55,817 bases of DNA from Promethearchaeota archaeon (GTDB taxonomy: Archaea > Asgardarchaeota > Thorarchaeia > Thorarchaeales > Thorarchaeaceae). Where the stretch lies: NCBI GenBank assembly GCA_048939765.1, contig JBHLPF010000025.1, positions 1 to 55,817 on the forward strand, read 5' to 3'. Positions 18,757 through 22,552 of this stretch are shown piece after piece (the first letter of the stretch is position 1; every line of letters begins with the position of its first letter). The position numbers and the translations under genes are program-made. Under the pieces are notes generated by a model. The model had not been told where the DNA came from. It worked only from the letters and a program-made list of their open reading frames with translations, and did not search any database.

Positions 18757-20088
18757 TTGTCGAAAGAAAAGGAACATCTGAATCTCGTGGTCATTGGCCA
18801 TGTAGATCACGGTAAGTCTACAATGACCGGTAGACTACTGTACGAGACTGGTGCGGTCGATGAGCGGACGTTCCAGCAGCACAAGGAAGAAGCGGAAAAG
18901 CTGGGTCGTCCGAGCTGGGCTTGGGCTTTTGCCCTTGACCGCCTGAAAGAGGAGCGTGAGCGAGGTCTTACTATCGACATCGCTTTCTTCAAGTTTCTCA
19001 CTGACAAATATTACTACACCATTATCGATGCCCCTGGACACAAGGACTTCATCAAGAACATGATCACCGGTGCATCACAGGCTGATGTAGGCCTACTAGT
19101 CGTATCAGCCAAGCGTGGTGAGTTCGAGGCTGGCGTCGGTCCTGGTGGCCAGACGAAGGAACACGCTTATCTCGCAATGACACTTGGCGTACCTTCTCTC
19201 ATAGTTTGTGTGAACAAGATGGACGATGACACTGTCAAGTACAGTGAAGATAGGTACAACGAGGTCAAGGATGAGGTTGGAGGATTCCTGAAGAGCATTG
19301 GATTCAAGCTTGACAAAATCCCATTCATTCCTACCGCGGCTATAGGTGATGCTTGTAACCTGAAAGATCTCTCATCAAATCTCACACCCTGGTACAAGGG
19401 ACCATCCCTACTCGAGGCTCTTGATCAAGTTGAGCTTCCACCGAAGCCAGTCGATAAGCCATTGCGATTGCCAATCAATGATGTGTACTCAATCAAAGGT
19501 GTTGGCACTGTCCCAGTCGGTCGTGTCGAAACCGGTGTCATGAAGCCTGGCCAAAAAGTCACCTTCATGCCTCCAAACAAGACTGGTGAGATAAAGACTA
19601 TCGAGATGCATCATGAACAGCTCAAAGAGGCAATTCCTGGCGATAATGTCGGTTTCAACGTCCGAGGCATCGAGAGGAAGGACCTTGGTCGTGGAGATGT
19701 TGCTGGACCTACTGACAGTCCGCCAACAGTTGCAGATGACTACACTGGCCAGATTATGGTAATTCAGCACCCGACAGCCATCACTGTGGGATACACCCCA
19801 GTCATCCATGCACACACTGCACAGGTCGCATGCAGGTTCGATCAGATTCTTCAGAAACTCGATCAACGTAGCGGTCAGGTCCTTGAAGAGAACCCTGACT
19901 TCGTGAAAAAGGGCGAGTCGATGATTGCCAAGTTGGTCCCACTCAAACCGATGTGCATTGAAACCTACAAGGAATTCCCACAGCTAGGTAGGTTTGCAGT
20001 ACGTGACATGGGCATGACAGTCGCAGTAGGCGTCGTGACTAAGGTCACAAAGAAGAAAATGGAAAAGAAGGCTGCAAAGAAAGAGTAG
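18757..20088 (+). CDS. tuf: Elongation factor 1-alpha
   Basis: [28 protein letters not shown]. Confidence 0.99.
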
Positions 20089-20202: not shown

Positions 20203-20628
20203 ATGCTCGACGATGATTCATACGATTATTACGGTGAACCACAGGAGCGACCCACAAGCCCTTCCCGCTGGATAGTATTCATCCTCCTATTGATCATTGG
20301 GTCCATTCTTGTATTTAGTTCCATTGTAAGCGCTCCTCCAGAAACATACCTGCTCTACATTGTGTTTCTAGTGCCCATGGTCTTGCTCTCACTATACTGC
20401 GCATATCGCTGGGCTCAGGGACGCCCAATAGCTCCTACAGATGTCGCAGATGATGATAGAATCCTCACACAGATGCGAGCACACGCGCTCCCAGCACAGA
20501 GAGTCGCGGACCTTGACATGTACAGGTGTCCTGGCTGCGAGATGTCGTTTGATCTCTCAAATGCTACTCCTGTGGGGGAGAACGTTGTTCTCTGTCCTAT
20601 CTGTGAAACCAGACTCTACATTGAGTAG
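20203..20628 (+). CDS. Two-TM membrane protein with C-terminal zinc ribbon
   Basis: Two hydrophobic helices; CPGC...CPIC. Confidence 0.75.
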   Translation: MLDDDSYDYYGEPQERPTSPSRWIVFILLLIIGSILVFSSIVSAPPETYLLYIVFLVPMVLLSLYCAYRWAQGRPIAPTDVADDDRILTQMRAHALPAQRVADLDMYRCPGCEMSFDLSNATPVGENVVLCPICETRLYIE

Positions 20629-20765
20629 AAACAGTCATATCAATCTAGTAAAACCATCCGCGGATTATTGATGAAGTTTCACACGAACATCGGGTGCAAT
20701 CCCGTCGAGCAATTATAGTCTGCCCAAACTTGTGATGCGGAATAGGTGTTATCTGCACCGTAGCT

Positions 20766-20820
20766 AGTCACAATTTGTGACTCCATTCTGTGACCCTCAA
20801 TTGTGGCTTCGCTATATATA
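20766..20820 (+). promoter_or_regulatory. Palindromic operator plus TATA box
   Basis: Perfect inverted repeat AGTCACAA-T-TTGTGACT (20766-20782), a degenerate second copy ending ttgtggct, then TATATATA about 33 nt before ATG 20853. Confidence 0.65.
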
Positions 20821-20852
20821 CTGATTCTGAGGGGTAATTCTTGTGAAATATC

Positions 20853-20963
20853 ATGGCTCTAGCAACTAACTCTCGAACTTCATCCGTGAAGAAGAATAAG
20901 AAGATTCCCAGAGTCCCAGAGACTCAGGCAATCCCTTACGCTAACATGACCTTTGTGAGGTGA
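20853..20963 (+). CDS. 36-aa micro-peptide 1 (not in ORF track)
   Basis: MALATNSRTSSVKKNKKIPRVPETQAIPYANMTFVR; first ATG after the TATA box. Confidence 0.6.
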   Translation: MALATNSRTSSVKKNKKIPRVPETQAIPYANMTFVR

Positions 20964-20972
20964 AACCTTACA

Positions 20973-21053
20973 ATGGCGCTTGCAAGGATCAAGAAGAACC
21001 CCCAAGAAATGGCCTATGTTCAGGCAATTGCCCGAACATACTCCTCGAGGTAG
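20973..21053 (+). CDS. 26-aa micro-peptide 2 (not in ORF track)
   Basis: MALARIKKNPQEMAYVQAIARTYSSR; GAGGTGA SD 9 nt upstream. Confidence 0.62.
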   Translation: MALARIKKNPQEMAYVQAIARTYSSR

Positions 21054-21059
21054 TTCCAG

Positions 21060-22421
21060 ATGACTACCTCTCTGGCCACCACCGATTCAGCTGAGGCTGA
21101 ACCAACCAAAGACAACACCTTCAAGTCTCTGCTTCGAAACAGGGACTACGCTCGTCTTTGGGCTGGACAACTTGTTTCCAATATCGGTACAGCAATCAGT
21201 TCTCTTGCTCTTCTTTTCTATGCATATAGTCTGACTCAGTCCGCCCTAGCAATGGCAATATTAGCAATGGCTCAGACCGCTCCAGTGGTCATCTTCGCTG
21301 GCTTTGTCGGAGTATATGTCGATAGATGGAACCGAAAGACAATCATGGTTGCGTCTGACATTGTTCGATCCATCCTTATCCTCCTCATTCCTCTTGCTGT
21401 TCACTTCCCAGGAAACGTTTCTCCTATCTATTGGGTCTACACTCTAACGTTTCTCTATGCAGTGGCAAATGCATGGTTCTTTCCAGCTAGAAACGCTTCA
21501 ATCCCGAACCTAGTAGAGGCCGATGAACTAGTCGCTGCAAACTCTCTCTCGCAAATGACATTCCAAGTAGTCCAGCTCACCATCCCGCCACTCGGGGGTG
21601 TACTAGTGGCGCTCCTTGCACCGGACTACTTCCTCGCTTTCGCCATTACAGCATCAACCTTTGCATTTTCTGCAGTTGCACTCAGGTCGATTAACACCTC
21701 CCTAGTTCCCAAAGGCAAAATCAGCAAGGAGTCTGTTCGTACACAAGTCATTCAGGGCGGAAAGTACGTGGCAGGCAATTCCATCCTTCAATTCTTCTTC
21801 ATCTTCGCCATTCTACTGGCAGGATCCTCCGGAATCCTCAATGCGTTGATGATGCCCCACCTAGAGGGTTACATTGGCATCACAGAGGTACAATTCGGTA
21901 TAATCTTGAGTGCTGGGGCCGCAGTAGGTACACTAACGGCATATGTTCTTGGCACCAAGAAGAAGATTCCTTACCCACTCTACCTCGTATCAATCGCAGG
22001 TCTAGTCGCTGGTATCGCCGTCTTCGGTCTTGCTTTCTCAACGGAATTCTGGGGTGTCCTTCTGTCATGGGCACTCATCGGATCTGTTGATGTCATGCTC
22101 AACATTCCGCTTGCCACTCTCATGCAGGACTTGGTTGTGGACAACTACCGGGGAAGGGTGTTTGCACTCCTCAATGTAGTCTTCACGGCTGTTCAAGTGC
22201 TTGGCATGGCTATCGGCGGAGTCTGGGCCGAGGCAGTGGTTTCAACCATCGCTCCACTGATTGGTGCAGCCATCGGACTTGTGGTAGTATCAGTCTTGGG
22301 CGTGCTGGTAGTATCCAAATGGGACCTACACGGTAAACTTGACATTATGCTGAATGACTCGGAAAAACACGTTGCTAGAGACACCGAGTCCTCAGAGGTC
22401 GCGCTTGAGGCAGTCACCTGA
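21060..22421 (+). CDS. MFS transporter (DHA3/MefA-EntS-like exporter)
   Basis: RLWAGQLVSNIG, GVYVDRWNRKTIMVASDIVR, YRGRVFAL; about 12 TM helices. Confidence 0.92.
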   Translation: MTTSLATTDSAEAEPTKDNTFKSLLRNRDYARLWAGQLVSNIGTAISSLALLFYAYSLTQSALAMAILAMAQTAPVVIFAGFVGVYVDRWNRKTIMVASDIVRSILILLIPLAVHFPGNVSPIYWVYTLTFLYAVANAWFFPARNASIPNLVEADELVAANSLSQMTFQVVQLTIPPLGGVLVALLAPDYFLAFAITASTFAFSAVALRSINTSLVPKGKISKESVRTQVIQGGKYVAGNSILQFFFIFAILLAGSSGILNALMMPHLEGYIGITEVQFGIILSAGAAVGTLTAYVLGTKKKIPYPLYLVSIAGLVAGIAVFGLAFSTEFWGVLLSWALIGSVDVMLNIPLATLMQDLVVDNYRGRVFALLNVVFTAVQVLGMAIGGVWAEAVVSTIAPLIGAAIGLVVVSVLGVLVVSKWDLHGKLDIMLNDSEKHVARDTESSEVALEAVT

Positions 22422-22552
22422 AGCGTGACAGGGCGGGAGAACTCAAAATAGTGCTCTCGCCCATCCTGAATGATTCATCGGGATGATTCGTTCAAAAGAT
22501 AGAACTAACTAGAGTTTTTCACTCGTTTATACCGGTTTCACGGTGAGTTTCA

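Follow-up and report, generated by a model that had tools for sequence, protein, structure and literature searches.

A conserved pair of micro-protein genes between an operator-type promoter and a DHA3-like efflux pump gene in Thorarchaeota

Several bacterial proteins of fewer than 50 residues, including SgrT, MntS, AcrZ and ArmR, share their regulation with a transporter or efflux system and work by binding a protein. Short open reading frames (ORFs) can also act in cis as leader or arrest peptides, a type of mechanism that is not known from archaea. Gene regulation and small proteins are almost uncharted in the Asgard archaea, the closest known relatives of eukaryotes. The locus described here lies in a 55,817-nt stretch of a Thorarchaeaceae genome (GCA_048939765.1, contig JBHLPF010000025.1, positions 1 to 55,817; hereafter the window), in which a palindromic promoter is followed by two micro-protein genes and the gene for a DHA3-like efflux pump of the major facilitator superfamily (MFS), all on the + strand, as are all window coordinates given below. 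An original prediction made from the nucleotide sequence of the window had called this an undescribed system. The description stands for the literature and databases searched, while the idea of a single odd locus does not, the promoter module being present four times in the genome and in 23 of the 24 genomes examined from this Thorarchaeota family. The locus is a real, undescribed and lineage-specific system. We put at about 0.5 the probability that the peptide pair acts in trans, being co-transcribed with and translationally chained to the pump within an operator-controlled regulon confined to Thorarchaeota.

The peptides resemble SgrT, MntS, AcrZ and ArmR in being proteins of fewer than 50 residues that would be co-regulated with a transporter; protein binding is the mode of action of the bacterial proteins and may be that of the peptides. 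Unlike them, the peptides have no transmembrane segment and form a multi-copy family with its own conserved operator, and there is no sequence similarity between the two groups. The likeness to the mef(E)/mel leader (PMC4335068) and to SpeFL (10.1101/604074) lies in a short ORF directly before a DHA3-type pump, a length of about 30 residues and a C-terminus of the form Arg-stop. The locus differs from both in its serial paralogous ORFs, its stand-alone copies and its archaeal host, and in having no attenuator or conserved alternative RNA structure.

Both peptides belong to one family, as judged with a hidden Markov model (HMM) built from 56 small ORFs extracted programmatically from the fetched loci. 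Gene 1 (20853-20963), the first cistron, encodes a 36-aa peptide of type A scoring 58.6 bits, with orthologs in all pump loci, and gene 2 (20973-21053) a 26-aa degenerate member of type B (29 bits). Family peptides are basic, 26-36 residues long and share an N-terminal Met-Ala-Leu-(Ala/Thr), a Lys/Arg-rich middle, the motif S-T-x-A-(I/V/L)-x-x-A-Y near the C-terminus and a terminal Arg. Whole-genome profile searches of the 24 genomes from this Thorarchaeota family found 1-11 family ORFs in each of 23, and the genomes from elsewhere in the phylum had none. Orthologous pump genes were examined in different Thorarchaeota species wherever at least 450 nt of upstream DNA was available, and all 27 such loci carry one to three family ORFs upstream, 26 of them together with the promoter module. 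The absence of the ORFs from orthologous loci, which the original prediction had named as the outcome that would count against it, was thus not observed. The train of ORFs in the window numbers two, compared with up to three at other pump loci.

The family has largely escaped annotation through the small size of its products, gene callers systematically missing the first cistrons of these operons. A search of 1.84 billion representative proteins returned only 43 matches, nearly all of about 30-40 residues and at least one an artefact (a 797-residue repeat protein). The eight that were looked up were all unnamed or "hypothetical protein"; a few members have been called independently as genes in public data. 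No match to seven family peptides was found in Pfam at E<=10, none to positions 20600-21200 in Rfam at E<=1, and the ESM Atlas gave no usable match to the family. Neither full-text literature searches nor the databases turned up an account of such peptides in Asgard archaea. Two possible relatives were discarded: PDB profile matches to bacterial uS11, on its basic N-terminal tail, are at chance level (E about 0.8) and were rejected as compositional, and a likeness of the C24 subtype to eukaryotic eL29 was dropped as no PDB match was found at E<=10.

Sequence comparison indicates that the two ORFs are real paralogous genes under selection at the protein level, as had been proposed. The proposal rested on differing synonymous codons at shared residues (gct-cta vs gcg-ctt; atc vs att), which had been read correctly, and the family extends the argument. 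In 40 first cistrons codon 2 is GCT throughout and codon 3 is CTA in 33, while 32 later cistrons encode Ala2 by all four codons and Leu3 by four; Met-Ala-Leu is therefore under selection as protein. The signature is strongest for the type B peptides of 32 residues that directly precede the pump (n=19): their dN/dS is 0.23 in the coding frame and 1.09 and 1.76 in the alternative frames, and pairwise differences are 0.33, 0.24 and 0.56 at the three codon positions, the third varying most. Type A first-cistron peptides have a dN/dS of 0.54-0.57 in frame and 0.8-0.96 off frame. Compared with the orthologs in the relatives G009 and G014, peptide 2 of the window has a pS of about 0.6 and a pN of about 0.25 (pN/pS 0.40-0.42), while for peptide 1 both are low (pS 0.12-0.20, pN 0.13) and pN/pS is about 1. 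The low divergence of peptide 1 at both kinds of site follows from the conservation of its 5' half (the first ~50 nt) as nucleotide sequence within the promoter module.

This module is a stretch of about 90-100 nt common to the loci that, in flank alignments, starts abruptly at the palindrome and runs through the TATA box and a short leader into the first few codons. Its distal operator is a perfect 8-1-8 palindrome (20766-20782), known from the sequence and the genome scan, followed by two TGTG(A/G)C half-site-like elements (20788-20808; CTGTGACC at 20788-20795 and TTGTGGCT at 20801-20808) that abut the TATA box and are kept in 93 distinct Thorarchaeota copies. The original prediction had described a degenerate second copy of the palindrome at this position; conserved elements are indeed found there, and are better described as two further half-site-like elements than as a second palindrome. 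The TATA box (20813-20820), read from the sequence, is invariant in the alignment with relatives. From its distance we infer a transcription start at about 20843-20845, coinciding with a fourth TGTGA-like element (TTGTGAAA, 20841-20848) that is present in all copies, and then a leader of 8-10 nt to 20852 without a Shine-Dalgarno site. Conservation of the half-site-like elements and of the fourth element equals that of the palindrome.

The scan of the genome for the palindrome, suggested as a way to define the regulon, covered 3.37 Mb (88.5% complete) and returned two exact copies and one with a single mismatch, against about 0.002 expected by chance and none for a reversed control pattern. A profile of the 93 copies, used with nhmmer, widened this to a set of four loci and no further copies in this genome: the window, contig C24 after the PolX gene, contig C41 beside the superoxide reductase gene and contig C54 before a bactofilin-like gene. 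The best match in the genome is positions 20765-20855 of the window (89.2 bits), placing the first cistron behind the conserved palindrome and TATA module. With a 121-nt query, 23 of the family's 24 genomes gave 2-4 matches of 75-95% identity; the 16 genomes searched from elsewhere in the phylum, representing 13 families, gave none. Compared with the nearest relative the 87-nt promoter is 92% identical despite a divergence of 52% at the synonymous sites of the pump gene, and promoter identity is 92-93% to the relatives compared, in which half of the synonymous sites of the pump gene differ. On this comparison the promoter is under strong constraint, some 90 nt of DNA evolving several times more slowly than synonymous sites.

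The pump gene (21060-22421) encodes 453 aa and its product scores above the Pfam cut-offs for MFS_1 and MFS_3. Its best NCBIfam match is TIGR00900 (2.A.1.21) at 217.8 bits, below the curated cut-off of 319.6, with weaker matches to the Mef(B/C/A), EntS and Tet(V) models; the label "DHA3-like" is therefore kept. Orthologs across Thorarchaeota are 58-93% identical.

The three genes are chained through the ends of the two small ORFs. The terminal Arg codon and stop of gene 1 form the GAGGTGA Shine-Dalgarno site of gene 2 (20957-20963), and the last Arg codon and stop of gene 2 likewise supply the GAGGTAG site of the pump, within 21047-21070. The stop-to-start gaps are 9 and 6 nt, and the window sequence between the cistrons shows neither a T-tract nor a terminator. 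This arrangement had been read correctly in the window and is general in the family. Arg is the last codon in 80 of 84 family ORFs and is AGG or AGA in 73 of the 80, compared with 57 of 168 internal Arg codons; the tails read as anti-Shine-Dalgarno matches, with the next start mostly 4-7 nt past the stop. On account of this codon bias and these tails the terminal Arg is largely a feature of the RNA level. In Haloferax and E. coli an intergenic distance of -8 to +10 nt predicts termination-reinitiation coupling and is enriched for complex subunits (PMC10666635). The distances within the predicted transcript here, and those of 4-7 nt that prevail family-wide, fall in this range, from which we infer translational coupling of the three cistrons. 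Known coupled gene pairs of archaea and bacteria (PMC6728339, PMC10666635) share these distances and the placing of downstream initiation signals inside the end of the upstream ORF. They differ in that overlaps of 4 or 1 nt are usual there, whereas the gaps here are +4 to +9 nt and the upstream genes are only ~30 codons long.

Both Shine-Dalgarno sites of the window are paired in local hairpins. A 9-bp hairpin (20953-20973; local z-score -2.16) sequesters the first and ends at the gene 2 start codon, and a second (21047-21070) pairs the other with pump codons 2-4, leaving the start codon in the loop. The whole leader of the window folds better than 200 of 200 shuffled sequences (z-score -4.47). 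The 20953-20973 hairpin is replaced by weaker, different folds in the two nearest relatives, no family-wide structure was found at the junctions (mean z-score -0.25 over 84 junctions), and RNAalifold gave no consensus base pairs in 38 first-cistron 5' regions. A conserved RNA element at the junctions or in the 5' region was therefore rejected.

The other copies of the module provide the main argument on function. Oriented maps of 45 copies, with Pfam annotation of recurrent neighbours, fall into five classes. In class 1, to which the window belongs, peptides are followed by the DHA3-like pump, while in class 2 a peptide is followed by an unknown protein of ~157 residues and then by one or two MFS_1 transporters. 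Class 3 copies lie after PolX and have one or two peptides and then only convergent genes; class 4 copies, which follow superoxide reductase, have two peptides, convergent genes beyond them and a GNAT acetyltransferase in the vicinity. Class 5 is the operator without a peptide, before the bactofilin-like gene. The synteny of classes 3 and 4 is kept across genera. As the cassette is maintained where there is nothing downstream to regulate, the peptides would be trans-acting products and not only leaders. The ~157-aa protein of class 2, which at four loci with the same promoter in other genomes (L090, L091, L092 and L100) is conserved with a family peptide on one side and MFS_1 transporters on the other, has no Pfam or NCBIfam match.

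Taken with the chaining, this suggests a promoter with four TGTGA-type sites around a TATA box that is probably bound by a dedicated winged-helix regulator and yields a nearly leaderless mRNA carrying, in order, a type A micro-protein, a type B micro-protein (degenerate here) and the pump. The downstream cistrons would start from the Arg-stop Shine-Dalgarno site of the preceding ORF, 6-9 nt before the start codon, so that the three products may be made in a chain. The two basic peptides would be conserved products acting as an intracellular pair in trans, with the pump, the operator-binding regulator or nucleic acid as candidate partners. The operator as delimited here, the candidate regulator and the regulon of four loci provide handles on whether archaeal micro-proteins control or accompany efflux pumps.

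Several findings weigh against trans action of the pair. The tight chaining to pumps, seen in three transporter contexts, would fit a cis-regulatory role as well, and protein-level constraint on type A is weak (dN/dS 0.54-0.57; about 1 when peptide 1 is compared with its closest relatives). No match of the peptides to a known family or fold was obtained, and an AlphaFold model from a 76-sequence alignment, with two helices and a helical C-terminal half, is of low confidence (pLDDT 63). The family is also eroding in this genome, where peptide 2 is degenerate and two further copies are broken while the pumps are intact. The HMM found only two other members here, one on C24 (a readable ORF of 36 residues) and one on C41 (a stub of 13 codons), and with an interrupted ORF on contig C80 the genome holds three readable and two broken peptide copies. 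Compared with its orthologs in G009 and G014, peptide 2 no longer has the Ser-Thr motif, carries a 15-nt in-frame deletion (5 residues) and is rewritten in its middle. The C41 copy (C41:8365-8497, - strand; locus L087:3900-4100) has a full promoter and then only the stub, which runs into a convergent gene, where relatives have peptides of 35 and 29 residues and a 198-aa convergent gene beside the superoxide reductase. On C80 a 36-codon family ORF (C80:37607-37717, + strand) upstream of a paralogous MFS gene (C80:37815-39083) has an in-frame TAA at codon 20, its ortholog in G016 being intact. The damaged copies may be assembly errors or the peptides may be dispensable in this lineage. The promoter of the C80 ORF differs from the module, having GGTCAC and GTGACC about 25 nt apart.

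Neither of the two functional readings offered in the original prediction is supported as it stood. Its operator-type promoter and the chaining to the pump were borne out; the relay of leader peptides has been weakened by the stand-alone operons and the want of conserved RNA structure. As a cis-acting mechanism such a relay would have translation of the peptides, perhaps stalled at the C-terminus or stop by a drug or metabolite, gate the pump through the embedded Shine-Dalgarno site. It has a precedent in the leader control of the DHA3-type Mef(E) (PMC4335068), and in length (26-36 residues) and in their conserved C-terminus, closed by Arg-stop, the peptides recall SpeFL and its block to release at the stop codon (10.1101/604074). 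It would also fit the position of the peptide ORF, which in nearly all orthologs ends 4-9 nt ahead of the pump start codon, and the hairpins around both window sites, which a terminating ribosome would open. Leader peptides are, however, found only upstream of a regulated gene, whereas conserved cassettes occur here without a co-directional downstream gene, and neither the junctions nor the 5' regions hold the conserved attenuating or masking structure that such control calls for. The bias of the terminal Arg codon is accounted for by the Shine-Dalgarno site itself, and a sensor needs no two or three chained paralogs. We consider this mechanism unlikely as the role of the peptides. That the ORFs are non-functional by-products of a conserved promoter and 5' region is highly improbable: the nucleotide-level conservation of the first ~50 nt of peptide 1 and its pN/pS of about 1 would agree with it, but frame, length and stop position are kept across dozens of diverged copies, in-frame dN/dS is far below off-frame values, synonymous codons turn over at conserved residues, indels are in frame and a few members have been called as genes in public data.

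The other reading originally offered, exported signalling or antimicrobial peptides with a dedicated exporter, has found no support beyond linkage. Here the peptides would be leaderless cationic secreted products and the MFS protein their exporter or immunity pump. Linkage to transporters in no fewer than three contexts, one being the DHA3-like pump of the window and two the MFS_1 genes of another class, is as such a role would predict, and the peptides are multi-copy, fast-evolving and basic with a predicted helical C-terminal half. They are nevertheless strongly polar and lack a signal or leader sequence, and stand-alone copies have no neighbouring transporter. No modifying enzyme or peptidase is adjacent, as had been noted, and the neighbouring genes examined with Pfam include no ABC exporter; the genome's four loci and the synteny classes likewise hold neither an ABC transporter nor an immunity gene. 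The known cargo of MFS carriers is small molecules or very short peptides, and polycations of 30 residues are not known among it. Leaderless bacteriocins and phenol-soluble modulins differ in their dedicated ABC exporter or immunity genes and in an amphipathic hydrophobic helix, the helices of the present model being of low confidence. A secreted role is accordingly improbable when set beside the trans-acting intracellular pair favoured here.

The candidate regulator is a 102-residue winged-helix protein of the Sso10a family (Pfam HTH_45), encoded at C54:91656-91961 (- strand). The class 5 operator always follows its gene within 20-50 nt, and the protein is suggested as the operator-binding regulator because it co-occurs with the operator. 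The DNA downstream of the gene was read in this genome and 12 others. Palindrome, TATA box and bactofilin-like gene follow it in this genome and in eight of eight other module-carrying genomes of the family that were read (eight of nine genera); the winged-helix gene is 75-98% identical in family genomes with the module. The arrangement is absent from G019, the only family genome in which no module was found and whose Sso10a ortholog is only 65% identical, and from three genomes outside the family. Two other neighbouring helix-turn-helix proteins were set aside on a mismatch of distribution: a 125-aa protein upstream of the C24 copy, which is unrelated to the Sso10a-like protein and present in only 11 of 24 family genomes, and an IclR/TrmB-like winged-helix neighbour that occurs throughout the phylum. 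More speculatively, and with little probability on present evidence, types A and B might bind the Sso10a-like protein as anti-repressors or co-repressors and so set the expression of efflux pumps, of the bactofilin-like filament protein and of themselves. If true, this Thorarchaeota-specific peptide circuit would be a form of small-protein feedback control new to archaea. At C54:91544-91961 (- strand; loci L003 and L130) the order is winged-helix gene, palindrome, TATA box and a bactofilin-like gene of 433 aa.

Every element listed in the original prediction is present in the window where it had been placed. Upstream of the locus lies an archaeal EF-1alpha gene (18757-20088), the start codon of which is apparently TTG. 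The gene directly upstream of the operator (20203-20628) encodes a membrane protein of 141 aa that carries a CxxC...CxxC zinc-ribbon at its C-terminus, has no Pfam family and matches TIGR04104 only weakly. Past the pump stop codon, 22430-22520 holds a GC-rich hairpin with a T5 tract about 50 nt further on, a plausible end of the operon.

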